From: a virus
Lineage: Duplodnaviria; Caudoviricetes
DNA: 64,000 nucleotides
IMG/VR virus record: IMGVR_UViG_3300013121_000016
Span: 1-64,000 of that record
Strand: one strand, 5' to 3'
Part shown: piece after piece, positions 4,006 to 51,171 of the stretch
How positions within the stretch are numbered: the stretch's first letter is position 1
Layout: each line of letters begins with the position of its first letter
The notes under the pieces: generated by a model
The model's database searches: none
Told to the model about the DNA's origin: nothing
What the model saw: the letters and a program-made list of their open reading frames with translations, nothing else
Made by a program: the position numbers and the translations under genes

Positions 4006-4954
4006 ATATTCTTTTCAGAATTTTCTTAACGAACTTATAGGTTTTCTTACGCTTGTGACGCAAGTAGAAATCTGATATGTCCTTAGGGCCAATAGTACTT
4101 GCGTACTTTATCCTGAAGGCAGTAGATAATTTGCGGTTTTGCTCCATCCCAGTCTCGTCATTGTCCATAAATGCCACGACGTATTTGTAGGATGCTTTTA
4201 ATTTTTTCACTACTCGTTTCACTACATCGCTCTCAACACTTACAACTTCACTATTAAAGCAGATGGCAGGGAACCCAAGTTCCCTTAGTGCCATCACGTC
4301 TTTAAGCGAAGAGGTTATAAAGACTGCTACACCCTTTTTCGCGGTTCACTCCATCCCACCGATATCTTCCGCTCCAGCGTTCCCGTACCATTTCCCTTTT
4401 CTGGAAGGGCTTAAGGGCCGGTACAGTTTTAGACGACCTGAGGGAAACGAATACACAAAGATCGGATTCGTCTTTGTTCTTCGCATATAGAGATCTCCAT
4501 TTCGATACACAGTCTTCACAGCAGAGACACCGTACTTGGTTAGCGTTTCAGCGCTTATCCCGAACTGTTGCCAGTACCACAAATCTTCGTCCATGCTCTT
4601 CTGGACTACTTCAAGTAGTACATCTTGTTCAAGATTACCTTTCCGGCGATCACTGTGCTGAGAAACGAGTGGTAATTCTCGTTGTAATATCTTCACTGCC
4701 TCCTTGTAGGAGACTTTGTATTTTTCCATGATGATGTCCATAATGGTGTAAGACTTACCTAAGGGAAAATCCCTAAAGTATAGTACACCATTACTGCCTT
4801 TCTTAAAGGCACAGGACGGGTTGTTGTCTTTTCTAAGCGGATTAGTATACAATCCTTTGCCTACCTCGATACCGAGGAAGTGGGACATAACCGCTTCTTG
4901 CCCCACTTCCTTAATCAGATCCCATGGATCCCGATGCTCGCTTGCCCTAATCAT
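3968..4954 (-). CDS. DNA primase (crAss-type, Toprim), 328 aa with 1 TGA=Trp
   Basis: NPLRKDNNPSC, KLYRP..KWYGN, ITSSLKDVMAL, MDNDETG, KDISD; two track ORFs joined by TGA 4346. Confidence 0.9.
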
Positions 4955-10233: not shown

Positions 10234-11368
10234 GGATCTGAGTTATTCATTTAACGTTCTTAAGAGAAGATGTTTTCTTAAGAATCCATTTCTCTTCTTG
10301 CGTGTCTGGCACGTAAAGATTGATAAAAACAGCTTTCTTACCTTCTTGTGGTCGGAGTATTCTCCCTAGCCTTTGAATGTTTTCAAGGTCAGTAGAGGCT
10401 CCTGCGGCACAGATAGCGCTGTCAACATCAACAACATTTAGCCCCTCATTAAGGGCGTCCACTGTGATAAGTGGGTGGTTATTCTTTTTAAATGATTCCA
10501 ATACCACCTGCCTTTCTTTGTCAGAAAGCTTAGAGTGATAGACTGGGCAGTCCATTGTTTTTGCAAGCCCTTCGGCAAAGGATATGCTTTTGGTGAATAT
10601 GATTCACTTTCTTTTTGGAAACTGCTTCACCAACTTTACAATGGCTTCCATTTTGGATGGACAAGAGTACAGGGTGTTTTTACGTAAGGACATCCCTGCC
10701 CAATATTTTTTAGAGAGTTCAACCACTGGCGTCTTATCAGACTGCTTTGCCATATAGTTAGCCAGGTCAAAGATAGATTTAAACTTATCCTTGTAATGAG
10801 CCGACCATAGTCTAGCTAGTCCTATCCGTGAAGAGGAAAACATTTGATCGAACACTCGATATTTCGCTGCTGTGTGGTGATCCATCTTAACCGCCAAGTT
10901 ATAGACTAGATATGGCGCTAATGTGCCATCTATCTCATCTAAATGCTTTGCGTAGATCACTGGGGAAACTTGCTCCATTAAAGCCAGCTTACCTTCGTTA
11001 GGAAGAGTGGCAGTCAAACAAATGAGATGTTTGTACTTAATGGATGAAAATAATTTGATGAATGCCGGTGAGAAGGCCCTGTGGGCCTCGTCCACGATCA
11101 ATAAGTCACATTCTGTCTCAGTCTTGTAGGCAGTGTTAATGACCATGACCCTAACGTCTGCGTCAGGATACGTTTCCTCGTATTCCTTTTTCCACTGTTC
11201 TACTAAAGGCACTCGGGAAGTGACGACAACACAGGAGCCTCCCAGACTCTTGTGCGCCATCACTCCCAAGCGCGTTTTTCCGGTCCCTGTTGGCAGTACT
11301 ACGGTACCATTTCAGTTCCGCTGCGCCAACATAGCTATTGCTTCTTCTTGTATTTCTGTTCTAGTCAT
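10208..11368 (-). CDS. SF2 DExH helicase, 386 aa with 3 TGA=Trp
   Basis: LPTGTGKT, IVDEAH, LTAT, LNEGLNV, QRLGRILR; TGA at 11312, 10604 and 10247; TAA at 10208. Confidence 0.9.
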
Positions 11369-12430: not shown

Positions 12431-13498
12431 CTAAGGGTTTATAGTCATTGCCAAGCCCCCCTCCTTGGGCGACTTCTTAAATTGAGCAAGGATCTCGGCA
12501 ATGAGATCTTTCTTCTCTTTATCCGTACCGTTGAAACCTTCTACCTTGAGGTAGAGACGTCCAATGGCCTCGGAGACGGCAAGCTGAGTCTTCGCATTTT
12601 GGCTCGCGAGAAACTTGTGGGCAGAGGTCTTTTTACTTTCTACCTTATCGTCCGCAAGTCCGCAGAATGTGAGCAGCTTACCTACATTCTCTGCGAACGG
12701 TTTTGCTTTATCCTTGTCCTTTCCTTTGTCTTTATCCTTATCCTTGTCCTTATCCTTGTCTTTGTCTTTATCCTTATCAGCAGCAGGATCCTTTTCAAGG
12801 TCCGAATTGAGTACACCTTTAGTGCTCTCACGTCTTGAGCGCGCTACCTTCAGCGTTTCCCAAAGTACTAAGAGTAAGTGACAAACGGTGATAGCGAAGG
12901 AAGCAATTAAAACGCCAGAGGAATCAGACAATACATTGTAAGTCAAGGGTTTTCCCAAGGAATACAGCTCTGCGAAGTATTCACGCGCGCTCATCAAGTT
13001 GAACGCTACAAATATTCGGTGGAACATTAACGTCAACTGTGTCATTTCGCCTAAGTTGTTGGCAATGACAATCAAGTTAACGACCGGGGTCCCTAGAGAG
13101 AGGATAGTGGTAACAAACACTAGGCCTAAGGAGATCAGCGCATCAACGACGGATTTCTCCTTCATGATGGCTGAGTATAGGTTGTTTAATTCTTTCGTCC
13201 ACACCAAGCCAGCAGCAACGGATAGGGCGGCCATACAAGTGTGAGTGAGCATCCGTGCGAGAGGAGATATGTCGTTCGATGCAAAGCCTGCGGCTAGAAC
13301 ACCCTCGGCAAAGTTTGCCCAGAATAAAAAGATGAAGAATAGAGACATTGGGTACCGAATTGTTAACTCGGCGACTACCAAACCGATCTCTTTGCCTTTG
13401 TTCTTCGGGTCACGTGCCACCTTCACAATCAGGAGGATGACAGCGACCACAAAAAGTATCGCTAAGAGAATCACTAATAGCTGGTTCGAACTGACCAT
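12431..13498 (-). CDS. Polytopic membrane protein with (DK)n linker
   Basis: About 5-6 hydrophobic segments, then a DK repeat and a helical C-terminus. Confidence 0.75.
   Translation of the reverse strand: MVSSNQLLVILLAILFVVAVILLIVKVARDPKNKGKEIGLVVAELTIRYPMSLFFIFLFWANFAEGVLAAGFASNDISPLARMLTHTCMAALSVAAGLVWTKELNNLYSAIMKEKSVVDALISLGLVFVTTILSLGTPVVNLIVIANNLGEMTQLTLMFHRIFVAFNLMSAREYFAELYSLGKPLTYNVLSDSSGVLIASFAITVCHLLLVLWETLKVARSRRESTKGVLNSDLEKDPAADKDKDKDKDKDKDKDKDKGKDKDKAKPFAENVGKLLTFCGLADDKVESKKTSAHKFLASQNAKTQLAVSEAIGRLYLKVEGFNGTDKEKKDLIAEILAQFKKSPKEGGLAMTINP
12707..12778 (-). repeat. Hexamer tandem repeat encoding (DK)9-GK-(DK)2
   Basis: GAY-AAR units visible directly. Confidence 0.9.
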
Positions 13499-15312
13499 TA
13501 TTTAATCCATTTTCGTGTAATTTTAGCTTCGGCAGGAATTGGTAGACTTTTGCAGAAGACGTTCGCAGCTTTCTCCATAGAAGAGCTTAGAATATCTTTT
13601 ACTTCTAACGCATCCTGCTCTTTGCACATTACTACCCACTCGTCATGAACGAGCAGTATGAGCTCAAAGATAGGCCGTTTTTTTTGAGCCTCGCGCATGT
13701 AGACACCTGCTAGCTTCGAAATTGAAGCTCCGGTACCTTGTGGACGGTAGTTCTGAGAAATCCGTTGATACTCAGCCTTAAGGGTCTTGTAAAGAGACGC
13801 ATACTTAGGATGTAAATCCTTGTGTTTTTCTACGAAACGATATAGATCCCATTTAGGTAAATACGACTTTCTGCCTAGAACCATGTCGATTAACACGTAC
13901 CCTTGAGCGCGTGTTTTATTTCCGACCTCGTCGAAGTACTCTTTCAACGTCGGAAACGTCTTAAAGTATTTCGCCACCATATCCTTAGCATTAGCGCTAG
14001 GGACTCCGTATCGACTTGTGACGGTTGATGCCCCGCCGCCAAAAGCAATAGCAAAGCCAACGTTTTTGGCAAGTCTACGCTCTGGCGAATCCTTCGTAAG
14101 GTTCGGGTTGTTAAAGGCTTTCTTAGCGGTTTCAAGGTGATAGTCAAGACCATCACGGAACATCTGCCGCAACACTTCCTCACCTGAAATATCCGCAAGC
14201 AAACGCGCTTCTTGTTGCGAGTAGTCGGCAACGACGAAGGTTCACCCTTTCGGGGCTTCAAATGCCGACCGGTACTCTTCTCCATGTGGGATGTTTTGCA
14301 TGTTAGGATCGGAGGACGATGTGCGACCAGTATCCTTTATCTGCCAAAAGGATGAGTGGATCCGTCCAGTCCGTGGATTAACGTGCTGTAAGAAACTTTC
14401 ACCGTAAGTACCGTCACGTTTGACTGCCTCACGATAGTCGATGTACGTCTTTACTAGAGGATCTGACATCTTAGATGCCAAAGCCACTTTGGAGACGCTT
14501 TCTTTGATTGTGCCGGTTTTCCGGTCGATGAATTCGACGTTTATTCCTTTCGTCTTAAAGACCTTAGATACTTGCTGCCAAGATAACCAATTGATATCAG
14601 CCACAAGCTTTAGCTCCTTAAGGAGCTCCTCTGCTGCTGCTTTCGATTGCTCGGCGACTTTTAGCCACGCATCCTTATTGATGGGGATACCATTGATTGA
14701 CATATCTGTAAGGACTTTAATCGTTTCGAACTCTAACCTAGCTAGATCGTGAAGGTCATTCTCGCGAAGAAGTCTTTGCAGATGGACGTAAAGACCGTAA
14801 GCATATACGACGTCTAGAGCACCATAAGTAAGATGCACCTCACTAAATTCCTCGTCGTCCTCAATTAAAGCAAAGGAGTCCCTTACCTTCTTGGTGACGT
14901 AAGGAATAAAAAGGTTACCTTGGTTAGTGTACGCGAAAGGATCGTAATACCTCTGCGCCGTCTTCTCTAGAGTGAAATGGCCGCGTTTAGTTGGCAGCCC
15001 GCACTCAAGGATTTGAGCCGCGATCATCGTATCGAACAGGTTCTCTAGAGTGATTCCAAAGTCCTGCTTGATTACTCGATAGTCGTAGGATAAGTTGTGC
15101 CCGATAACCAACTTGTTTTGGTCAGCAATCATCTTGACAAGCTCGTAAGCTATATCGTAATGACTGCGCACGTCCACAATTCATTGGGTCTCGTTGTTTC
15201 CTAACTGAAGCATGATCACCTTATGGTCCTTTGTTTCAGTGTCCAGCGCCAGACAGGTCTGTCGGCGCAGCCAGGCCTTAGCCTTAATTAAGTTTTTCTC
15301 GTTTACTATCAT
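13498..15312 (-). CDS. polA: Family A DNA polymerase with 3'-5' exonuclease, 604 aa with 2 TGA=Trp
   Basis: LALDTET, GHNLSYD, TGRTSSSDPNMQNIP, APKG[W]TFVVADYSQQEARLLA, RRLAKNVGFAIAFG, VHDE; TGA at 15181 and 14242. Confidence 0.95.
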
Positions 15313-15632
15313 TAGAATACCTCTTTGCCGTTTCATCTCAGAAACGAGTCTTTCTCGACCTCAGATGCTAACTTGATTGGTTTGGTATGGGTTAGCTTTG
15401 ATAGGCCAGTATAGGCCAGATGCCTTATCCGGCGTACAAAGATACGATTGTCTATGCGCACTTTCCAAATTTGAGGCGTATAAACTTTCTGCTGAGCTTC
15501 TTTATCGGCCTCGTCCAAAATGAAGGGGAGCCCTTCGGAGATAAACTCCAGTAGCTCCCCCTCTTGAAACTCGCCGGTTTGGTGCTCTCAGTCAGTATAG
15601 ATCCTGACCTTAGCTCCTTTACGTTTACGCAT
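15312..15632 (-). CDS. Hypothetical protein, 106 aa with 2 TGA=Trp
   Basis: MRKRKGAKVRIYTD[W]...FLR[W]NGKEVF*; read-through gives a TAATG overlap with polA. Confidence 0.7.
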
Positions 15633-38907: not shown

Positions 38908-39285
38908 ATGACGATAAATTTTAATGTTTCCGAGCAAGCTTTCTTGGACAAATACCTGGCACTGATATCAGCTTTGCGTACCTCTGACAAGCAAATCTCT
39001 CCTCTAGAGAAGGAAGTTCTAATAGCTTTCTGCTTACTTCCTTCTCGCTTTAACTCTTTCCCCTTATCTCCTGCAGGTAAGAAGCAAGTACTGTCTTCAC
39101 TTTCGATGTCACTAGCTTCTCTTCACGCTAAGATATATTCCCTACTGTCTAAAGGTTATCTATTAAGGGAGGAGGATAAGACTATTATTATTGCGCCTTT
39201 TATTAGGCAAGCACTCAATTCTTTTAGGAATAATTCTAACTATGAGTTTATATTTACCTTTTCACTCGACGGCTCCACTGATTAA
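38908..39285 (+). CDS. Putative winged-HTH protein
   Basis: ISPLEKEVL...MSLASLHAKIYSLLSKGYL. Confidence 0.55.
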   Translation: MTINFNVSEQAFLDKYLALISALRTSDKQISPLEKEVLIAFCLLPSRFNSFPLSPAGKKQVLSSLSMSLASLHAKIYSLLSKGYLLREEDKTIIIAPFIRQALNSFRNNSNYEFIFTFSLDGSTD

Positions 39286-39691
39286 GCAGACGGCTACTTT
39301 AACTGATATTCCGAAGCATATTGTTGAGGATGTAGTATTACATCAGTTTGCGTGGCTCAAGCAGAACCTAGAGTTTCCTACGGCCACTGAGATTAAGCTG
39401 CTTCGGTTAGGCACTTTTTCCTTGCATAAAAGGATTACGTATGAAAATATTTCTAAGATAATTTCTCGCTTAAAGAGGAAAGATTCGTATCTTTACACTA
39501 ATTCTAATGAAGAGAAGTTAACTAAGCTTCTCAATAACTTATTATTACTTCGACACTATGCAAAAAAGTCAAAAAGGTCCCGCGAAGGCTTCTTCGGTCT
39601 CCCAAGAAAATCTTCAGCAACTAATTCAATCTCAGATGATTCAGCAGCAGATGCAACATCAGAACCATCAGCTCCATCTGGACACTCTTAA
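39242..39691 (+). CDS. HU/IHF-like DNA-binding protein
   Basis: LIKQTA..TDIPKHIVEDVV...EIKLLRLGTFSL. Confidence 0.65.
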   Translation: MSLYLPFHSTAPLIKQTATLTDIPKHIVEDVVLHQFAWLKQNLEFPTATEIKLLRLGTFSLHKRITYENISKIISRLKRKDSYLYTNSNEEKLTKLLNNLLLLRHYAKKSKRSREGFFGLPRKSSATNSISDDSAADATSEPSAPSGHS

Positions 39692-39839
39692 AACTCTTAC
39701 GGAGCTCTTCACTGCCACTAAGCCCGCCTCCTCGACTGAGGCAATTTCTCCACTTAATGAGAAGGTAGCGACCGCTCTAGATCATCTCCTCAAACCGTTC
39801 CTTCCTCAAGAAAACGAAATCACTGATGACACTATCTAA
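39558..39839 (+). CDS. Gln-rich hypothetical protein
   Basis: Operon-packed ORF. Confidence 0.5.
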   Translation: MQKSQKGPAKASSVSQENLQQLIQSQMIQQQMQHQNHQLHLDTLKTLTELFTATKPASSTEAISPLNEKVATALDHLLKPFLPQENEITDDTI

Positions 39840-40215
39840 TATTACTCTTACTGGAGACAGGGTACTCATCGCACTAGATGAGCATCCTACTCACACTGTT
39901 ACTAAAGGGAATATAGTTGTGCCGCGTTTTGAGCAAGGAGTCACAGAAGGAGGTAAGCCTCGATCTGATTTAGATTCGAGAAAACACCTCTCAGTAGGGA
40001 CAGTGGTCGCTATTTCGCCCTTAGCGTCCAAGCGAATGTCTGAGGAAGAGACTCCCCTCCGCCCTGGAGACAGGGTTTACATATCGGCTACGGCTAATAA
40101 TATCTCATACCAATTTATATCTGATCGTTCGCGCTTAGTCGTGGACTTTGACGGCCTGATCGCCGTGCCTCATAATTATATTGAGGCAATTGTAAATACA
40201 CCAACCAATGGCTAA
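39826..40215 (+). CDS. groES: Co-chaperonin GroES-like
   Basis: LTGDRVLI, TKGNIVVP, GTVVAI, LRPGDRV. Confidence 0.75.
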   Translation: MTLSNITLTGDRVLIALDEHPTHTVTKGNIVVPRFEQGVTEGGKPRSDLDSRKHLSVGTVVAISPLASKRMSEEETPLRPGDRVYISATANNISYQFISDRSRLVVDFDGLIAVPHNYIEAIVNTPTNG

Positions 40216-40522
40216 TAAAGCTCTCAGTGCTGCACAACTTCAAAAGCAAGTTGCAGACCTTCAGGCAGCTCTTGCGTCTTCAGAGAAATTGGCTGCCGAT
40301 CGCGGCCGTCTTCTCGAATACGTTGCTAATCTTTTACTTGAGATTCAAAACAAGTTCTCTAACTCCCCTGTTCTTACAAATCTGCCCAAGAAAGTTAACT
40401 TTTGGTGGCTCCTTACGAACTGGCGTGCAGTCTTAGAGTTCATCGAGTTTGTAGTTCTCAAGATTAAAGAGTTCATCAAGAATGTAAAAGTTCAGCCTAA
40501 TCCAGATGCTGCTGCTCAATAA
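40208..40522 (+). CDS. Coiled-coil hypothetical protein
   Basis: Heptad N-terminus, amphipathic C-terminus. Confidence 0.6.
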   Translation: MANKALSAAQLQKQVADLQAALASSEKLAADRGRLLEYVANLLLEIQNKFSNSPVLTNLPKKVNFWWLLTNWRAVLEFIEFVVLKIKEFIKNVKVQPNPDAAAQ

Positions 40523-41009
40523 TTTTGATCCGTTCGAAGATTTCTGGGCCACAAACCCGCAGCTAAGAATCCTCTTTAAGGAGGAGTACGATGCGAAAGT
40601 TCCATCTTCTCAGATGTGGGCTGTGGCTCTCTTCGTCCATCCATCTTCTAAGCTTTTCAATGAATCGCCGGAGAACCGCAAAAAACTTATTCTAAGTGAT
40701 TATCTTAATGATCCTTCTTTTGATTTTGATTCGCTTTCTCCAACAATTGATAAGTTTAAAAGACTAGTGCTCACGAAGGCGGAGCTTCTTCTCTCTAATT
40801 GGGAGAAAAGAATGTATGATCGCGAAGCCTTCCTAGACTCGGTTCCTTACTCGCCAGACACTTTCGACATGATCGAAAAGATGGTTAAGGAAACTCCTAA
40901 ACTCTGGCAAAACCTCTTTCAAATTCAGACTGCTCTGTCAAAAGAGCAAGATACTAAGGTTGAAGGAGATATTGAGGAGTCACTTTCTGAGAAAGGACTT
41001 CTCGACTAA
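40506..41009 (+). CDS. Hypothetical helical protein (possible terminase small subunit)
   Basis: Upstream of the packaging genes; C-terminal VEGDIEESLSEKG. Function is inference. Confidence 0.5.
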   Translation: MLLLNNFDPFEDFWATNPQLRILFKEEYDAKVPSSQMWAVALFVHPSSKLFNESPENRKKLILSDYLNDPSFDFDSLSPTIDKFKRLVLTKAELLLSNWEKRMYDREAFLDSVPYSPDTFDMIEKMVKETPKLWQNLFQIQTALSKEQDTKVEGDIEESLSEKGLLD

Positions 41010-41254
41010 GGGCCTGATCCTGGACATCTTTGGTTAGTTGTAATCTTTAAATGACGAATCGCTTTCTTTTGCTGCCTCAATCCCCTCGTGGGCCGTGACT
41101 TACATCCAGGCAGCTCCGCTCACCTCTACAGCGGATGACCAAGTAGAGGCACCCGAACTCCTCGAAGTTTTAGTATAGTCATTACCCTTTACACCTTACT
41201 AGCTTAATCGCCCTCTAATCAAACACGCGGGTTCGACTCCCGCCAGGTCCACCA
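41010..41254 (+). ncRNA. ssrA: Minimal tmRNA (245 nt)
   Basis: Acceptor GGGCCTG/CAGGTCC with G3-U, ACCA end, T-arm GCGGG-TTCGACT-CCCGC, helix TTTGGTTAG/CTAATCAAA, H-type pseudoknot 41116-41149, tag-like frames. Confidence 0.85.
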
Positions 41255-41334
41255 AAAGCTTGCCAGCTATAGGGGGAGATTGATTAACGATCGCTCCCCC
41301 AAAGAATAACCGTTCACTTTTAAATTTTTTGCTT

Positions 41335-41436
41335 ATGTCCTACATTCAGGGGGTTTTCAACCACTGTGCACCGACGTGTCTGCTCAACGATCATCGCCGC
41401 GATGTCCCCCAGCAGCCACCCGGTAGTCGGGTCTAA
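41335..41436 (+). CDS. Possible 33-aa small ORF between tmRNA and tRNA
   Basis: MSYIQGVFNHCAPTCLLNDHRRDVPQQPPGSRV*, AT-rich start context. Confidence 0.35.
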   Translation: MSYIQGVFNHCAPTCLLNDHRRDVPQQPPGSRV

Positions 41437-41523
41437 CCTTTAATCCGCTTCAAGGCTTTGGCAGATCAAAAAGTTGATCGCTTTACGGGGTAAGGGCGCT
41501 GTAATAGTGCCCTGCCCCACTAT

Positions 41524-41597
41524 AGGGTGGTAGTTCAATAGAGTTAGAATGACGGTCTTCAAAACCGTAGATGAGGGTTCGAGTCCCTACTGCCCTG
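41524..41597 (+). tRNA. Opal suppressor tRNA-Trp(UCA)
   Basis: Cloverleaf; anticodon arm ACGGT-CTTCAAA-ACCGT (TCA at 41559-41561); A1-U72 and G73 as in tRNA-Trp; short variable loop; CCA not encoded. Confidence 0.92.
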
Positions 41598-41614
41598 CTA
41601 ATTTAAACTTTGCT

Positions 41615-41896
41615 ATGGAAAACACTTGGTACAGATTTCCAATTACTGTCGTTTCTCAACAAGACTACGAGCTTTATGGTAACCAACCACCGGCTGACGC
41701 CTCTATGCGGTCGTACGTAGACTTTAGACTTGACTCAATCGTAGGCCTCAGAGCTTACTTTGAAGATGACGGCACGGTCACTGGAACACAAATTTACACG
41801 ACAGCTGGAACTGATTTTGCTGTCGATCTCAAACCATCCGAGGTACGCAAGATTCTCGGATACACACCTATAAATAAAGAAGAACATGGAAACTAA
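41615..41896 (+). CDS. Hypothetical protein
   Basis: Start moved to ATG 41615, downstream of the tRNA. Confidence 0.65.
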   Translation: MENTWYRFPITVVSQQDYELYGNQPPADASMRSYVDFRLDSIVGLRAYFEDDGTVTGTQIYTTAGTDFAVDLKPSEVRKILGYTPINKEEHGN

Positions 41897-42131
41897 TTAT
41901 ATTGAAACAGATGGAACCGTCTCAACATCTACAATGCTGAGTCATGCCATCCCTATGGCGGATTGTCCTTGTAAGAAAGAGTATGTAGAGCGCAAACAGG
42001 AACATCGCGTATCTCTATACGCCATATCAGATATGGACCCAATAAAGATTACGCAAGACTTTTCTAAAATTATTGAGTACATACAGACACTCGGATTCAA
42101 GACGACAGGAGTCGAATTAACTCGTTGGTAA
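41886..42131 (+). CDS. Hypothetical protein
   Basis: Operon-packed ORF. Confidence 0.55.
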   Translation: METNYIETDGTVSTSTMLSHAIPMADCPCKKEYVERKQEHRVSLYAISDMDPIKITQDFSKIIEYIQTLGFKTTGVELTRW

Positions 42132-42373
42132 TGGAAATCACTATTTATTTTGAAGCTATTGATGAGGACACTCTTGGTAATGGGCGCACGATGGTAGCCA
42201 TCGACGTTCCCTTGGCAAGGAACGTCGAGGACTTCGACAAAGTACTTGACTCTCAATTCTCAAACTTCAAGATGCGCCTCCTTACCGAGCTCTATAAAAA
42301 GTACCCCCACTACTGGCATAAGAATTCACCGATCGAACACGATAAATTAAAATCACTAGAAACGAATGGCTAG
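42131..42373 (+). CDS. Hypothetical protein
   Basis: TAATG overlap. Confidence 0.55.
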   Translation: MEITIYFEAIDEDTLGNGRTMVAIDVPLARNVEDFDKVLDSQFSNFKMRLLTELYKKYPHYWHKNSPIEHDKLKSLETNG

Positions 42374-43979
42374 AAAAGTCATATCAGGACAAGAACTACA
42401 GGACGGATTATCAAGAGGAGTCGACATCCTTGCCGACGCTGTAGGTTCAACCCTGGGCCCACTGGGCCGAAACGCTATTATTGAGACTCCTTACGGAGCG
42501 ACTACCGTGACTAAGGATGGAGTGACAGTGGCTGAGCTTATTGATCTTGAAGATCCTATCGAGAACCTTGCTGCTCAGATCCTTAAGCAAGCTGCACAGC
42601 GAACAGCCAAGGTTGCCGGAGACGGCACGACCTCTGCTACAATTATTGCGCAAACTCTCTATCAAGAAGCCCGCAAGCTTATTACGTCTGGAGTAGCTCC
42701 GATTCACATCAAACAGAGCTTCGAGCGGTTCCTAACCCAAGTTATTCCGCTCATCAGAGATAAGTCTTTAGAGGTCTCTACCAAAGAGGATATCTATCAG
42801 ATTGCTCTCATCTCAGCTAATAATGATGCGCATATTGCCAGTCTTATTGCTCAGGCAATGGAATATGTTGGAAAGGATGGGACTATTACATTAGAGGAGT
42901 CAAAGACTGGGACCACTGAAGTTACACTTGTTGATGGTTACGCTTTCGAGCGTCCTTACGCGTCTCCCTATTTTGTTACTAATCCTGCGAAAGGCGAAGT
43001 AGAATTGGATAACCCACTCATTTTCATTACAGATAAGAAGCTTCGCTACACGCAAGAGATTATTCCTATCCTGGAACTTGCTCACGCCAATTCTCGTCCA
43101 CTGCTGATTATTGCTGATGATATTGAAGGCCAAGTCTTACAGACCTTAGCAATCAACAAGATCTCCGGGACTATTAAAGTATCAGCCTGCCGTGCACCTT
43201 CGTATGGTGAGAATCGTCTTCAAGTCTTACAGGATATTGCAGCGCACACTTCTGCTACTGTTATCTCAGAGTCTTCGGGCCAGCGCATTGAAGACACTAC
43301 TTTTGAACAACTAGGCGAAGCTGCTAAAGTTCGTTCAACTCGTAACGAAACTATTATTATTGATGGAGCTAAAGATGAAGCACGTACTGAAGAGCGCGCA
43401 GAGCAAATCAGACTTGCTCTTAAAGACTACACCGGTGACTCTTATTACCACAAGCAATTACAAACACGCCTCTCGAAACTCACAGCCAAAGTGGCTATCC
43501 TACATGTTGGAGCAGCAACGGAAACTGAACTCAAAGAGAAGAAGGCGCGAGTTGATGATGCACTCCGAGCTACGACGTGCGCTGTCCAAAAAGGATATGT
43601 TGTAGGTGGTGGTACTCTTCTTGCTAAACTTTCAAAACAATTTGCAAATGAAAACGACATCATATCGACAGTTTTCGCCAGAGCTCTTTCGGCGCCGCTT
43701 CGCAGAATTGCTCAAAACGCTGGCACATCCCCGGATCTCGTCCTTGCGAAAGTACTTGAGGAAAAGAATGAGTTTTATGGCTACAACGCGTTAACTAACG
43801 AGTATACTGACCTAATTGTTGCCGGGATCATTGATCCTACCCTGGTCGTTGAACAAGCACTACTTAACGCAGTCTCCGCTGCAAACATGCTAATTCTATC
43901 TGCTACTGGTATCTACAACATAGACCGCACGCCGCCCTACTCTCCCGGTAATTTAGGAGACTTTCAGTCAGAAGAATAA
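42366..43979 (+). CDS. groEL: Chaperonin GroEL
   Basis: TLGPLGRN, VTKDGVTVA, AGDGTTSAT, GAATETELKEKK.RVDDAL.AT, GIIDP; no GGM tail. Confidence 0.96.
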   Translation: MARKVISGQELQDGLSRGVDILADAVGSTLGPLGRNAIIETPYGATTVTKDGVTVAELIDLEDPIENLAAQILKQAAQRTAKVAGDGTTSATIIAQTLYQEARKLITSGVAPIHIKQSFERFLTQVIPLIRDKSLEVSTKEDIYQIALISANNDAHIASLIAQAMEYVGKDGTITLEESKTGTTEVTLVDGYAFERPYASPYFVTNPAKGEVELDNPLIFITDKKLRYTQEIIPILELAHANSRPLLIIADDIEGQVLQTLAINKISGTIKVSACRAPSYGENRLQVLQDIAAHTSATVISESSGQRIEDTTFEQLGEAAKVRSTRNETIIIDGAKDEARTEERAEQIRLALKDYTGDSYYHKQLQTRLSKLTAKVAILHVGAATETELKEKKARVDDALRATTCAVQKGYVVGGGTLLAKLSKQFANENDIISTVFARALSAPLRRIAQNAGTSPDLVLAKVLEEKNEFYGYNALTNEYTDLIVAGIIDPTLVVEQALLNAVSAANMLILSATGIYNIDRTPPYSPGNLGDFQSEE

Positions 43980-46219
43980 TGATTTTACCTTCTAATCCTA
44001 AAGATTTCTTACTTAAAGAAATTCCAGATTTCCATCCTCTTTCTGCATCTTGGGCTGCTTTCTGAAGAGAGCAGTATCGATACTGCAAGGAGGGCTATTG
44101 GGTGGGTGGCACTTGAATGCCGCCTGCCCTTTACTATTATGCGAACTTTGGAACTATTAAGAAGAACATAAAGTTTTCCTCAGCCAAAGTTTACGATCGA
44201 CCAGACCTTCGAGATCTGGAATGGGACCTCTTCTATCACTACAGTGAAGCAAGAGGTTTTTCTGGTTTTAAGTATGATGACGTTTATTCGTCACACAGGA
44301 TACTACTTGATCCTGACGTAACTGACGATTTTTTACTTCTTAATCTTCCTGAGACACTTAATTCTAAGGGAGAACGTAAGACATATGTGCCTGCGCGAGA
44401 TTACATGCGCAAGCTACATCCCACCGCTCTTGGCCCACCGCTCTTTGACAACGAGAAGAAGAACCTTATGCTTCTCGGCTCTCGTGACTTAGGTAAGTCG
44501 TTTGCTGTCGGTGTAGGGATGGTTGGTCACATGTTCCTCTTTCCGCCCGCTGCCAATCACACCAAACGTATTCCTACTGAGGTTCTAGTTGGAGCATCTA
44601 TTTCTGACAAGTCTCGAGATCTTCTAAAGAAGACTAAAGACTCTTTTGACTTCCTTCCGGGTAAGCGCACTATCTCTGGTCGCACTTACCCTTCGCCATT
44701 TTATAAGCAGTACTCTGGCTCTTGGTCAGTAAACTCGGATATAAAGGCTGAATATAAGAAGAAAGTGGATGGTCGTTGGGATACTGTTGGTAGTCGTGCT
44801 GTTATTAAACACAGGTCCTTCAACGAGAATCCGTTTGCTGCTCAAGGTACCCGCCCCGACCTTATGGTCATTGAAGAAGCAGGTATGGCTCCCGAGCTTA
44901 AAGACATTTATGTTCACTCAGTGGATGCTCTTCGTCGCGGTCTTACCAAGACTGGTACTCTCCTTGTACTTGGTACTGGTGGTGACATGGCTAAAGGTAC
45001 ACTTCCAGCCTCTGAAATGTTTTACGAGCCTGAGAAGTACGACTTCCTGGCTTTTGAAGACATTTATGAGCAGCGCGGCAAGATATGTTACTTCATACCA
45101 GCCTACTATTCGCTTGATGAATTCCGTAACGCTAATGGATATGTTGATGTAGAGAAGGCGACTAAGAAACTTCTCAATGTACGTAAGCTCAAAGGAGGCG
45201 ACTCGGGTGCGTCTACGGCACTCGATATGGAAATGCAGTATCGTCCTTTGGTGCCGTCAGAGATGTTCCTATCTAAGACAGCAAACATCTTTCCTTTTGC
45301 GGAATTGCGTCGCCGCCTCTCGGAAATACAAGCTACCTCTACTTACGAGAAACTAGAAAAAAAGGTAGATCTGTTCTTCGATCCGTCGGCCAAGTCCTAC
45401 AACGGAGTATCTTACGAGATTAACGATAGACTTAATCCAATTACTACGTTTCCTTATGATGGAGACGATAGAGAAGGAGCTGTTGTTATTTACGAGTTCC
45501 CACAGCTTATCGACGATAAAGTACCGCAAGACGCCTACATTATTGGTTGTGACCCGTATAAAGATGATACACAGGAAGGCCAATCGCTCGCCGCAATTTA
45601 CGTCGTAAAAACCTCGAAGTACTTCTCCACTATCGGTCACGATGAGATAGTTGCTTCATATATAGGACGCCCATACATGGGTAAAGTGATTGTGAATGAG
45701 ATACTTCACAAGCTGTCACTATTTTACGGCAACGCCAAGATTTACTTCGAGAACTCAGTGGGTAATGTCAAAGATTACTTTGAGCGCGTTACGCGCCTAG
45801 ACTTACTTGCAACACAGCCCACGACTCTTTTCAACAAGAAGGCTTCCTACAACACTTCTCCGACACTTATTTACGGTTATCCCATGCCCAATCAACGAGT
45901 TAAGTGGGAGGCGCTCCAGTACTTGCGTACGTGGCTTCTTACCGACCGAGGTGATGGTAAGCGCAATTTAGATCTCATATCTGACCCAGCGCTTCTTCAA
46001 GAGCTAATCTCCTTTAACCTTGACGGCAACTTCGATAGGGTGATGGGCTTGGTGGGTTGCGTTATTGGACTGGAGGAAACCTTCAACCACACAAAACGAT
46101 CACAGGAGCGAGAAGTATACTCTTCAGCTCTTGATTTAGAGATAATATCAAAGCTTACAAATAACAAAGCTTTATTCTATGAAAACTTTCCCAAAGCAAA
46201 GACTTCCATATTCGCATAA
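43979..46219 (+). CDS. Terminase large subunit, 746 aa with 2 TGA=Trp
   Basis: PDFHPLS..WAAF[W]REQ...EGYWVGGT[W]MPPALYYY (TGA 44063, 44114); GSRDLGKS, IEEAG, GTGG, GCDPY, NFDRVM. Confidence 0.93.
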
Positions 46220-48584
46220 GATAGCAAAGGATTACAAGTGGGCTAAGGAAGTGATGAACCATCTACTCGAGAATTTCACACTAGACTCCACTGCTGTAAA
46301 CGCTTTCCAGACCGATTACCATAGGAAGCTTTCTAACTACCAACTTTACAATAATCAAATTAATCAAAAGGACTTCGAGCGTGAATGCAATCCACTAGGA
46401 CTAGAGGTCGGTCAGATCGCTGACGAAATACAGCCTTATAATAAAGGTAACAACAAGATTCAGGTCATCCTTGGTGAGGAACTCCGTCGCCCATTCAACT
46501 TCCGTACTATCTTAGTTAATTCAGATGGAATTCGCTCTAAGATGATGTATCGCGACACCCTACTTCGCAAGTTCGTGGAGGATCAAGTTCAACAGGTGTT
46601 GTCATCTCTTTCGCAGATGTACGATCAAGAGAGACTTCAAGAAGAGACAGAGAAGATACTTAACCCCAAAGAAATAGAACGCTACATGTCGACGTCTTAT
46701 TTAGATGCGCGTGAGCAGCTGGCAGCTAAAATGCTACGTTATCTTCTTCGTTCCCTCGATATACAAGATAAGCGCAATGACGCTTTTAAGCACGGGCTCA
46801 TCTCTGGTGAAGAGGTTGTCTATGTAAGCGTGCAGAATGAGCAGCCTGTGCTCGAGATTATCAATCCTCTAGGGTTCTTCTATCACAAGTCTGCTGAGAC
46901 TAAGTGGATTCAAGACGGACTTTACGCGGGCTTCCGTACTTACCTTTCACCTGCTGAGATCATCGATCGATACGGTCAATACCTTTCGGAAAAAGAGCTT
47001 AAGGACATTGATTCAGCTCTTTCAGCATTCCACGACTCTGATAACGCAATCTCGCGCTCTATGAATTATGGACACGATCAGTTGCTTAAAGTACAGCTAG
47101 ACCTCACCACGCAAGGTTCTTACTCGGATTCCTCTATCGAGGATTATCTCGTTGAGCACATAGAATGGGTGTCTCAGCGCCGCATCGGTTTTCTAGAGAT
47201 CACTTCTCCAGACTCCGAGCCAGTGACTGATATGGTGTCAGAAGACTTTCCAATTCCTACTTACGCCACATCTCGCACCGAGACTAAGGAGTACGGCAAA
47301 AAGTGTACTTACATCGAGTGGCTTGACGAGTTAGGCAATGCCTACTCGCTTGAGTGGGGATGAATCCCAGAAGTATGGGAAGGTGTGCGCATTAACCGTA
47401 ACATCTATTGCTGCATTGGTCCTAAAAAGGAGCAGTTCCGTTCAACGGACGATCCTTATACAGTTAGACTCGGCTACCATGGTCTTGTCTATAATGCGAT
47501 GAATGCTCCATCTATTGCTATGATGGATCGCATGAAGCCTTTCATCTATCTTTACATGATAGTGATGCATAAGCTGAAGCGGCTAATTGCCCAAGATCAA
47601 GGTAAGGTGTTCCACTTCGATATATCGATGGTAGATCCTAAGATAGGTCTAGAAAAGACGCTCTACTACCTTAAGGAGATGAATCTTGACATCTTTAATC
47701 CGCTTCAAAATGCTGACCAGCCCGGTCAAATGCAGCGCGGTAAAGTGTCTTCGTCTACGGATATGTCTAACACACAACATATTCTTAATTACGTGTCTTT
47801 ACTTGCTGCTATCGATCAACAGATCGCTGAGGTTGCAGGTGTGACTCGTCAACGCGAAGGACAGATTTCCCCTAATGAAGCTGTAACTAATGCTCAGTCT
47901 AACGCGCAAATGTCATCTGTAATCACTGAGATTTATTTCTACGCGCACGACCGGCTTTGGGAGAAAGTCCTCACTTCACTTCTGCAAGTTACACAAGCTG
48001 CCTGGAAAGGTAAGTCAATAACCAAGCAGTACGTTCTTGATGATCTTTCCCTAGCTACCCTCGAAATATCTGCAGATCAAGAGTTCGAAGAGATAGGAGT
48101 GTTTGTTACTAACTCTGGACATGAAGTACAGATGTTCGACGCGCTCAAAGGTATATCTGATGGTCTACTGAACACCAACCGCGCTACCTTCTCTGATCTT
48201 ATTGCGCTCTATCAAGCAACTTCTGCCGAAGAACTCAAGGACCTTATTAGACAATCCGAGAAAGAATCCTTCGATCGCGAAATGCAGAAACAACAGCAGC
48301 AGACTGAAGCACAAGCACAGATGCAGCAGCAACAACAAGCTTTCGAGCTTGAGAAACAACAGCGTGAATTTGAGCACGACGTTCTCATACACGAGATTGA
48401 TTCTTTTAAATTCCAGAAAGATCAAGACTCTAATGACAATCAGATACCTGATCAGCTTGAAATTGCGAAGCTAAAACTGGACGCAGCGACAAAGCAAAAG
48501 AAACTTCAACTTGAAGAAAGAGCCCTTGATATCAAGGAGAAAGAAGTCAAATTAAGGGCAAAACAGAGCTCCACAAAGAAATAG
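46179..48584 (+). CDS. Portal protein, 801 aa with 1 TGA=Trp
   Basis: LEWG[W]IPEVWEGVRI across TGA 47361; ILGEELRRPF, AGVTRQREGQI; follows terminase. Confidence 0.9.
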
Positions 48585-48651
48585 AGCTATAGCAAATTTT
48601 ATTTTTTATAATTTCTACTTACCCAAAAGCACAATCTATAAATAATTTTGT

Positions 48652-49695
48652 ATGGAAAATCACATAGAAGATCCGCTCGAGGAATTTATCGCTGCTGGCA
48701 TAGTCCAGAAGGATGCCTCTAATAAGGACACACCGTCTCCCGAAGATTTACTTCTCCAAGACGATGACCCCGAGCCCCCTTCTGAGGATAACGATCCCCC
48801 TATTCACGATGATGAAGACTCTGAAGAAGTACAAGCTCAATACGAGTTCCTACTTTCCACTGGGTTCATCCAGCCTCCAAGCGAAGACTACGAGTTTGAC
48901 GGCAAGGCTGAAACTCTTGAAGAACTTATCGGACAATCACGTCGATCCGCAGAGAGCTCAGGCATCAACAAACTCTGGGCAGCGCTTTCCCCAGAATTCC
49001 AATCCGTAATTGAGTACGCACTCAATGGCGGCCAAGATCTCGAAAGCTTCTACAGAGAATACTCGGCACCTGATTTCTCGTCTATTGACATTAAGAAACC
49101 TGAGAATCAGCGTAGGGTCATTCGCGAATACTTTAAACAAACTACGCCGTATACGGATGAGCGCATCGATAAAATGATCGCGCGTTTAGAAGAAGACGGT
49201 GAACTGGAGAGTGAAGCACTCCAGACAATAGAAGACCTTCAAGACTTAAGGGAACAGCGTAAAGCCAAGTACCTAAAAGAACAACAGGAACAAGAAAGAG
49301 AGCTTAGAGCTGAAAATGAACGCAAGACTAACGAGTTAGTTAACGCAATTAACACGTCTAACTTTATTCATCAGCAGCGTCGCGACAAAGTGCGCGCTTT
49401 CTTTTTTAATCCTATTAAAGTTAATGACCAGGTAACAACTGGTTTCAATGAAGCGCTCCGAGCGATACGCGCCAACCCGGAACATCAAGCTCAGCTAGCT
49501 GACATTTTACTTGATTACGATCCTAGGAACGGTATATCACTCGAACGTATCGAAAAGCGAGTTAAATCTAAAGCCACATCAGACTTTAAATCAAAGCTCG
49601 GACGAGTCACTAACCCTAAGTTAACGACTCCTTCTTCCTCAGGGAAGAACAAACAATCTGACGACAATTTTTTATCTAAATGACTTTCTGCTTAA
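48652..49695 (+). CDS. Capsid scaffolding/assembly protein (1 TGA=Trp near the C-terminus)
   Basis: Acidic N-terminus, coiled coil, between portal and capsid; read-through adds WLSA and ends 3 nt before the capsid ATG. Confidence 0.7.
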
Positions 49696-49698
49696 TAA

Positions 49699-51171
49699 AT
49701 GGCAACTCCTCAATCCTCCTTTATTATTAAACAGTTGGAAGGCTTTGGTGGCTCCTTTGTAGATTCCGATTACTTGGGCGCTTCCTACGAGATAGGTAAA
49801 CCTCACGTATTCGAAGGTACGCTCATGAAAGTGTACTCTTCACAGTCCATGTTCTTCGGTCTTAAGCCGCTGATCTCCATGACTGGCGCAAAAGGCGGTA
49901 CTGTTGAGATCCCTACCGAAATCTACCGTTGGTCACTGCAAGGCGCTGAAGAGCGCACTGCACGTAGCCTTGAAAACCTGGAATCGTCCAACGACACCCC
50001 GGGCTTGAATGGTACGACCTTCCGCATCAAACTTGACATCGACTACTACAAGTATCCGGATGTCCTCTTCTCGGAAGACAATGAACTTCCGCTTGCTATC
50101 CAAGAAGGCCCGATTCCTGACGGAACTGGCTTCATCTACATTGTTCGCATTCAATCGGACAATCCTACTCTCTACCTGCCTAACACGTACCTGGAACCAG
50201 GTCGCCAGTTCAACAAAGTTTGGACTTCGACTCCTTCAGAAAACAATCAATGGTACGGCACACAACAGGCTCCCAATACCTTCCAGCTCGAAGCTCAAGT
50301 TGGCTTCTTCTCTCAAGGTTTGGAAGTAACTGACAAGGCTATGCGTGAAGACGGTCGCCTGCTCATCAAATTCCTCCACACGGATGCATCTGGTAACTCC
50401 ACAGTTATCAACAAATTCATCCCTTACTACGAGGCTAAGATGCAAGACGAACTGTACCGCTCCATGGAGGTTAACCTCATGTACGGTAAGCGCTCAACCC
50501 TGCCGGGCAAAGAGAAGTACTGGACCAAAACTGGTGCTGGTTTGCGCGAGCAACTCCGCGATTCTTGGATCGAGACATACTCCTCAGCTCTGACAGCTAA
50601 CATGCTTCAGGACTACCTGATGAATATTTTCTTCGCTCGTGAAAATGAGCAGAACCGTTCGGTTCGGGCTATGACCGGTACCTTGGGCTCACTCTTGTTT
50701 CACAATGCGCTTGTCGCCATCTCCAACGGTTTCTTAACCGTTGACTCTCACTTCATCTCTTCGGCTCCCAATGGCTCGGCCGTTCCTGGCTTGGCGTATG
50801 GCGCTCAATTCACGCGCTACCGTGGACCAGAAGGTATCATTGTAGACTTGATGAAGAATGGTATGAATGACTCTACGCTGTACTGCAAACGTTTCCACCC
50901 GCAGTATCCTGATATGCCGATTGACTCAGCTCGTATGACGTTCCTTGATTTTGGAACTTCCGGCGGTCAAAACAACATCTCGATGCTCAAAGTGAAAAAC
51001 TCGTTTACTTACGGTGTTGTAGAAGGCATGGTTGGTCCTAACGGTCCTAAGACTTCGGGCACGACTTCTTCGCTCAAGCATTCCTACGATGTGGGTATGA
51101 GTGGCTCGGCTGGTATCTGGGTTAAAGATATCACGCGCTGCGGTGAACTCATCATGGACTTCGAAGGGTAA
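49699..51171 (+). CDS. Major capsid protein
   Basis: Position; YRWSL, TGAGLREQL, MTGTLG..LFH, HPQYPDMPIDS.RMTFLDF resemble crAss-like capsid motifs. Confidence 0.85.
   Translation: MATPQSSFIIKQLEGFGGSFVDSDYLGASYEIGKPHVFEGTLMKVYSSQSMFFGLKPLISMTGAKGGTVEIPTEIYRWSLQGAEERTARSLENLESSNDTPGLNGTTFRIKLDIDYYKYPDVLFSEDNELPLAIQEGPIPDGTGFIYIVRIQSDNPTLYLPNTYLEPGRQFNKVWTSTPSENNQWYGTQQAPNTFQLEAQVGFFSQGLEVTDKAMREDGRLLIKFLHTDASGNSTVINKFIPYYEAKMQDELYRSMEVNLMYGKRSTLPGKEKYWTKTGAGLREQLRDSWIETYSSALTANMLQDYLMNIFFARENEQNRSVRAMTGTLGSLLFHNALVAISNGFLTVDSHFISSAPNGSAVPGLAYGAQFTRYRGPEGIIVDLMKNGMNDSTLYCKRFHPQYPDMPIDSARMTFLDFGTSGGQNNISMLKVKNSFTYGVVEGMVGPNGPKTSGTTSSLKHSYDVGMSGSAGIWVKDITRCGELIMDFEG

Follow-up and report, generated by a model that had tools for sequence, protein, structure and literature searches.

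A putative tryptophan-type opal suppressor tRNA for the TGA-recoded genes of a crAss-like phage

Introduction

The phage genome analyzed here holds about 34 in-frame TGA codons, in the genes for DNA polymerase, helicase, terminase, and portal and in other genes, together with one tRNA gene whose anticodon is UCA. This raises the question of whether that tRNA enables translation of the recoded genes and, if so, with which amino acid. UGA-to-Trp suppressor tRNAs have already been published for crAss-like phages (Yutin et al. 2021, PMC7886860), phage suppressors of this type also appear in a preprint by Borges et al. (10.1101/2021.08.26.457843), and the Zeta crAss-like phage Lera carries a SUP-TCA tRNA (PMC12386605). 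A phage tRNA-Trp-type UGA suppressor is, in other words, a kind of molecule already known in recoded phages.

We refer to the whole 64,000-nucleotide stretch of DNA under analysis as the window; it covers positions 1 to 64,000 of a single contig of 103,169 bp. The contig is complete, with direct terminal repeats and a CheckV value of 100%, and has a G+C content of 45%. An ORF at 49699-51171 matches the Pfam family Crass_capsid along its whole length (E 4e-64) and, judged by sequence, the genome is that of a crAss-like phage. Megablast of positions 41000-49700 against the phage collection returned no match.

Results

The tRNA gene and its anatomy

ARAGORN called one tRNA in the window, at 41524-41598 on the plus strand with the anticodon tca, and this UCA tRNA at 41524 was also the sole tRNA found when the whole contig was scanned. 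The Rfam model RF00005 matched positions 41524-41597 end to end (model positions 1-71), scoring 55.7 bits against a gathering score of 29, with an E value of 2.6e-9 for the window and one non-standard pair. The candidate suppressor is accordingly a 74-nt tRNA(UCA) (41524-41597, plus strand). Its anticodon TCA (U34 C35 A36; 41559-41561, plus strand), which pairs with UGA, lies in the loop CTTCAAA closed by ACGGT/ACCGT, giving the anticodon arm ACGGU-CUUCAAA-ACCGU. In the ARAGORN drawing, the acceptor stem consists of A1-U72, G2-C71, G3-C70, G4-C69, U5.G68, G6.U67, and G7-C66, and the discriminator is G73, the G at 41597. The D-stem (G10.U25, U11-A24, U12-A23, C13-G22) closes a D-loop of AAUAGAGUUA that has no GG; the Rfam alignment puts an A at G18 and a G at G19. 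The variable loop is 4 nt (AGAU), the T-loop is UUCGAGU, and the T-stem contains a G49:A65 mismatch, which is the sole non-standard pair flagged by Rfam. After G73, the DNA continues with the trailer CTA (41598-41600, plus strand); CCA is absent from the DNA, so the host must trim the 3′ end and add CCA. A G73-CTA/CAA trailer is also seen in syntenic relatives.

Several of these details had been listed in the original prediction for this locus, and all were found again: A1-U72 and G73 in both the ARAGORN drawing and the Rfam alignment, two G-U pairs in the acceptor stem (U5.G68 and G6.U67), a D-loop lacking GG, genomic CTA in place of CCA, and A24, here paired with U11. The prediction had called such features non-standard; they are real but minor variations, though the D-loop without G18 and the G:A mismatch in the T-stem could lower stability or processing. 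A free-energy fold of the bare tRNA sequence did not return the cloverleaf (z -1.3), which is common for tRNAs and carries little weight.

The ARAGORN label for this gene is "SeC," because of the anticodon alone. Measured against the hallmarks of tRNA-Sec (an 8/5 acceptor/T branch, a long variable arm, and a 6-bp D-stem), a selenocysteine tRNA (selC) was ruled out, as the gene has a 7/5 branch, a 4-bp D-stem, and a 4-nt variable loop with no long arm. It is a normal type-I cloverleaf.

In-frame TGA codons and the amino acid inserted

Among the late genes, the large terminase gene (TerL, 746 aa; 43979-46219, plus strand) has in-frame TGAs at codons 29 (44063-44065) and 46 (44114-44116), and the portal gene (801 aa; 46179-48584, plus strand) has one at codon 395 (47361-47363). 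We place the TerL start at 43979 and not at 44117, as relatives align across both TGA sites. Among the replication genes, that of the family A DNA polymerase PolA (13498-15468, minus strand) has three in-frame TGAs, one of them at 14242-14244 just before motif A, and that of an SF2 helicase (10247-11269, minus strand) is read through one TGA, with Helicase_C and ERCC3_RAD25_C stretches spanning the junction. When TGA is taken as sense, the DNA_pol_A domain matches PolA in one stretch across TGA (E 2.5e-72).

To see which residues stand at these sites elsewhere, we drew on 56 related IMG/VR loci whose near-full-length TerL matches had 47-64% identity and, with the late proteins aligned, compared five late-gene TGA sites in up to 50 related loci per site. 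TerL codon 29 is TGG in 26 relatives and TGA in 21. At TerL codon 46, relatives have TGG (7), TGA (4), Phe (TTT, 15), or Tyr (TAT, 21), and at portal codon 395 they have TGG (27), TGA (1), or Tyr (22). The two further late-gene sites show Trp or Phe/Tyr, apart from one Ile. At none of the five sites did any relative have Gly, Cys, Arg, or Ser opposite a TGA of the window. In PolA, the TGA before motif A aligns to the Tyr of "EDY-VIVSADYSQ" in Klenow.

This comparative codon result, more than the tRNA itself, fixes the predicted reading of TGA as tryptophan. The original prediction had held that the tRNA fixes the amino acid as Trp. Tryptophan stands, through the codons in relatives and the Klenow alignment; the tRNA alone is insufficient, because U34 replaces C34, a major determinant for tryptophanyl-tRNA synthetase (TrpRS).

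Resemblance to tRNA-Trp

We then compared the tRNA with known tRNA-Trp species. A global alignment with Escherichia coli trpT (from NC_000913.3) gave 55 identities over 74 positions. Next, leaving out the anticodon arm, we ranked by similarity the 290 unique type-I tRNAs that ARAGORN called across all the loci gathered for analysis: trpT came first, and tRNA-Trp, which makes up only 15 of the 290, accounted for 9 of the 15 nearest non-suppressor tRNAs. Annotated phage tRNAs whose matches cover at least 90% of the tRNA are labeled tRNA-Trp, except for one phage's "tRNA-Lys." BLAST of the tRNA gave no match at E ≤ 10 in all E. coli genomes and only chance fragments in the K-12 chromosome, where trpT was missed because mismatches break seeds. 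The features common to trpT and the phage tRNA are the 5′ AGGG, the GUAGUUCAAU D-arm, the CGGUCU-CAAAACCG anticodon arm, the GUUCGAGUC T-loop, and G73. At position 24, trpT has G in the column where the phage tRNA has A, whereas the Hirsh UGA suppressor (trpT G24A) has A24 as well; the phage tRNA does not depend on A24 for suppression, because its anticodon is fully cognate to UGA. Relative to both trpT and its UGA suppressors, the Hirsh mutant and the variant with a UCA anticodon, the phage tRNA has lost G18, has U.G as pair 5-68, and has a variable loop of 4 rather than 5 nt.

The determinants of bacterial tRNA-Trp are G73, the anticodon, the first base pair, G2-C71, G3-C70, and G4-C69 (PMC9976931). 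Within this set, the phage tRNA has G73, A1-U72, G2-C71, G3-C70, G4-C69, C35, and A36. It lacks C34, with U34 instead, as in every UCA suppressor, and it also lacks G5-C68, a minor Trp element in Bacillus subtilis, with U5.G68 instead. Collectively, these sequence comparisons support a tryptophan-type body, in agreement with the earlier proposal of the anticodon TCA on a tRNA-Trp scaffold.

The loss of C34 does speak for a different outcome, in which the tRNA would be charged with Arg, Cys, Gly, Ser, or Sec or mischarged with a mixture, and the SUP-TCA tRNA of a Zeta crAss-like phage was scored as Trp or Arg by tRNAscan-SE (PMC12386605). We regard such charging as very improbable. G73, A1-U72, and G2-G4:C69-C71 fit Trp, the lack of a long extra arm puts SerRS and the Sec pathway out, and the lack of U73 does the same for Cys. 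Arginyl-tRNA synthetase needs an A at position 20, where the Rfam alignment places U. The aligned codons in relatives are likewise TGG, Phe, or Tyr, apart from the one Ile.

An apparent split between two codes in one genome

Counting TGA and TGG codons along the contig demonstrates an uneven distribution. The replication block (1-16.6 kb, minus strand) has 15 internal TGA against 72 TGG, and the late, or virion, block (44-100 kb, plus strand) has 19 against 145. Between them, the middle block (16.6-38 kb, minus strand) has no credible in-frame TGA and 94 TGG, and the block around the tRNA (38.8-44 kb, plus strand) has no TGA and 11 TGG in nine ORFs. About 20 middle-block genes (16650-37858, minus strand) end at TGA, with TAA or TAG following 0-48 codons later. 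The genome thus appears to be split between two codes, with TGA as a stop in the middle block and as a sense codon in the flanking blocks. The use of TGA as an ordinary stop in the middle block argues for a standard-code host. Several of the middle-block gene ends are tandem stops (TGATAA). The base after TGA showed no clear difference between sense and terminator TGAs.

Were the host itself to read UGA as an amino acid (code 4 or 25), the phage tRNA would merely supplement it. Code-4 tRNA-Trp(UCA) from Mycoplasmatales and mitochondria does resemble the phage tRNA in being short and type-I, with A1-U72, G73, and the arm ACGGU-CUUCAAA-ACCGU, and short tRNA-Trp(UCA) genes with this exact anticodon arm are common in code-4-like, AT-rich contigs. 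We give a host of this kind very little credence, as the roughly 20 middle-block genes that end at TGA shortly before TAA or TAG fit a UGA-stopping host, the nine ORFs around the tRNA avoid TGA entirely, the TGAs align with Trp or aromatic residues and not with Gly, and crAss-like phages have been placed on standard-code Bacteroidota (PMC7886860). The code-4 tRNAs serve a genome-wide reassignment, whereas the phage tRNA must act in a standard-code host against release factor 2 (RF2). Code-4 cells are said to be without RF2 activity on UGA.

Surroundings of the tRNA gene

A GC-rich hairpin (41487-41518, plus strand) lies 5 nt upstream of the tRNA, where the original prediction had placed it, and folds at -24.3 kcal/mol (z -4.1 versus shuffles). 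No T-run follows the stem, and we rejected it as a canonical terminator; it possibly has a role in processing, stability, or transcript structure. Strong hairpins are also found upstream of the tRNA in the related loci L003 and L005, but not in every relative. The loop motif GCUGUAA-N-AGU occurs both in the window hairpin and in the strong hairpin 5′ of the L003 tRNA (about 4350-4390), and hairpins with this loop may represent a conserved processing or structural element. A scan of 40400-42500 for sigma-70 promoters and terminators found nothing above shuffled expectation near the tRNA.

Downstream, a small ORF of 93 aa (41615-41896, plus strand) starts 18 nt past the tRNA, and an ATG likewise occurs 3-22 nt past the tRNA in L005, L015, and L037. 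A listed 115-aa ORF that begins at 41549, within the tRNA, is probably over-extended. The tRNA gene and these neighbors belong to a block of small ORFs and a GroEL-like gene (38908-43979, plus strand; the nine TGA-free ORFs above), which, having no TGA, is translatable in the host's standard code. The GroEL-type chaperonin gene itself (42366-43979, plus strand) was recognized by a Cpn60 Pfam match.

Traces of tmRNA were also seen near these loci. In the window, a short Rfam match to a tmRNA 3′ end lies at 41226-41243 (E 4.7e-5). In L005 (4431-4677) and its near-copies L007, L008, L010, and L056, ARAGORN called a tmRNA that precedes the suppressor tRNA by about 1 kb; in L037 (3143-3466), the tmRNA called follows the suppressor tRNA at about 1.1 kb, and a further one was called in L012 (1624-1884), where no UCA tRNA was seen.

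Suppressor tRNAs of related phages and a second, CCA-loop arm

In relatives with enough upstream DNA, a UCA tRNA occupies the corresponding position, 2.4-5.2 kb ahead of TerL and in its orientation. Its presence mostly tracks in-frame TGAs in TerL and portal: recoded lineages with the tRNA are L002, L005/7/8/10/56, L015/24, L037, L039-41, L047, L050, and L052, and non-recoded lineages without it are L013, L017, L020, L022, L023, L030, L033/34, and L046. Exceptions occur in both directions: L003/29 has the tRNA and no TGA in TerL or portal, and L012, L028, and L035 are recoded, yet no UCA tRNA was seen at their syntenic spot. Given L012 and L035, the phage tRNA may not be the sole route to recoding. 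The syntenic tRNAs keep every stem despite widely differing sequence, which argues for selection on the fold.

Most syntenic relatives differ from the window in having a longer UCA tRNA of 94-100 nt, in which a second hairpin of 4-7 bp follows the anticodon arm. The loop of this second arm is 7 nt, N-U-C-C-A-A-N, a copy of the CCA anticodon loop of tRNA-Trp. Such two-armed tRNAs are located at L003:4412-4509, L005:5503-5596, L015:216-309, L037:1977-2070, L039:2807-2905, L047:3368-3467, L050:5140-5237, and, in L052, near 4290-4400. They share a Trp-like acceptor stem, G73, the CUUCAAA anticodon loop, and the genomic position with the tRNA of the window, whose 4-nt variable region has no second arm. 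Literature searches found no publication describing a CCA-loop arm.

We also scanned IMG/VR for long forms with a pattern that did not require the CCA-loop motif (GGTCTTCAAAACC, 16-34 nt, GGTTCGA). This gave 69 unique long tRNAs, 38 of them with UCCAA in the arm and about 4 more with other CCA-containing loops (GUCCAUA, or CUCCACA in L192). G73 is present in every one of these CCA-loop tRNAs, and in most the acceptor stem is Trp-like and begins with A1-U72. The other ~27, on viral contigs, mostly look like true tRNA-Sec (a subset of L159-L201, e.g., L173, L195, and L190). These tRNA-Sec-like viral tRNAs combine an acceptor stem of the GGAAG...CTTCCG type with a 6-bp D-stem and a long arm that has no CCA loop. 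A short-form scan of IMG/VR gave 18 matches, of which about 5 were Trp-like and none were like the tRNA of the window, so that in these scans two-armed tRNAs are about 8 times as numerous as short Trp-like UCA tRNAs.

No close copies of the tRNA were found in the IMG/VR and metagenome collections searched. A first metagenome pattern search for tRNAs like it gave no matches, and the 91 matches to a second pattern were rejected as relatives, as they look like organellar or code-4 tRNA-Trp(UCA). Short tRNA(UCA) genes with the exact anticodon arm of the window are common in marine and freshwater metagenomes (L233-L321); these are AT-rich, with A1-U72 and G73.

Two-armed forms are spread over the TerL tree, from deep to shallow branches, and the two short forms, those of the window and L002, do not group together as sisters. 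By portal identity, the window is closest to L039-41 (65%), whose tRNA is two-armed. These observations suggest, at somewhat less than even odds, that the window tRNA is a natural arm-less form within a lineage in which the syntenic suppressors usually bear the CCA-loop arm. The short forms may possibly have arisen through two losses of the arm, and replacement of the gene by a captured bacterial tRNA-Trp is likewise possible, the body of the window tRNA being closer to trpT than to the two-armed forms. If the arm-less reading is true, the arm was lost, or the gene replaced, at least twice while TGA recoding was kept, the CCA-loop arm would be an enhancer of charging and not a requirement, and the locus would offer matched natural pairs, with and without the arm, for testing its role. 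As an arm-less contrast, the window tRNA offers a way to learn whether charging by TrpRS depends on the CCA-loop arm; if it does, the window tRNA may be a poor substrate.

The missing arm bears on one further reading, that the tRNA is a decaying or weak relic and that read-through comes mainly from near-cognate reading by the host tRNA-Trp or from an unrecognized factor. The arm is kept by most relatives, the tRNA has a D-loop without G18, a mismatched T-stem, and a variable loop of 4 nt, and recoding occurs in L012 and L035, in which no UCA tRNA was seen. A relic is nonetheless hard to reconcile with 55.7 bits on the tRNA model and a single non-standard pair, with its retention as the sole tRNA of a complete genome, or with essential genes (PolA, TerL, and portal) that need efficient read-through at about 34 sites, and we hold it to be most unlikely.

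Discussion

Taken together, the sequence evidence favors the window tRNA as a phage-encoded, tryptophan-type opal suppressor that would enable translation of the TGA-recoded genes, a reading to which we assign a probability of about 85%. The original prediction had proposed this tRNA as the mechanism of recoding, and the proposal gains support from need and correlation: TGAs interrupt PolA, helicase, TerL, and portal, the tRNA is the only one in the genome, and its presence among relatives mostly follows TGAs in TerL and portal.

A six-frame search of the complete genome found no class-Ib synthetase (TrpRS/TyrRS family) and no RF-1-domain release factor. Without a phage TrpRS, the host TrpRS must charge the tRNA, and without a phage release factor, host RF2 stays a competitor. 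We propose that the tRNA is transcribed on the plus strand within the 5-kb TGA-free block, which would be expressible under the host's standard code, and that host enzymes would excise it and add CCA. The host TrpRS would then charge it through G73, A1-U72, G2-C71, G3-C70, G4-C69, C35, and A36. The UCA anticodon would pair with UGA, and by wobble probably with UGG too, in competition with host RF2. Tryptophan would in this way be inserted at the ~34 TGAs of the replication (1-16.6 kb) and virion (44-100 kb) blocks. Genes of the middle block (16.6-38 kb) would stop at TGA or, in the presence of the tRNA, be extended by a few residues to the nearby TAA/TAG.

The genome resembles published recoded crAss-like and gut phages in being crAss-like, in having a UCA tRNA and TGAs at Trp positions in TerL and portal, in relying on the host enzyme with no TrpRS of its own, and in having TGA stops that are soon followed by another stop. 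It differs in that replication genes (PolA, helicase, and a primase-like gene) are recoded besides late genes, the middle block uses TGA as a stop, the UCA tRNA is the only tRNA and adjoins a GroEL-like gene, and the G+C content is 45%. For annotation, the replication and virion blocks need TGA = Trp, as the standard code would break PolA, helicase, TerL, portal, and giant proteins into pieces. With a complete genome, one tRNA, no synthetase, and no release factor, this is a clean case of recoding, in which one suppressor, charged by the host, appears to sustain a partial recoding that includes the DNA replication genes.

Suppressors have reportedly been detected in only 35-40% of recoded phages in published surveys. 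Two of the related tRNAs have non-canonical T-loops, CUCGAAC in L002:3397-3469 and UGCAAGU in L039:2807-2905. ARAGORN misses both; Rfam scores the L002 tRNA at 42.9 bits and does not report the L039 tRNA. T-loops of this kind may help explain the survey figures. In L225, the record of L002, an Rfam tRNA match at 4136-4267 takes in the whole model yet extends over 132 nt, so that this tRNA gene contains an insertion of about 60 nt; ARAGORN makes no call there. Finally, the TerL match is split or stretched in L039-41, L045, and L048-50: in L045, 3 kb of DNA covers 694 residues, and in L039, the match starts at residue 209. Such split matches suggest introns, inteins, or insertions in the terminase gene.
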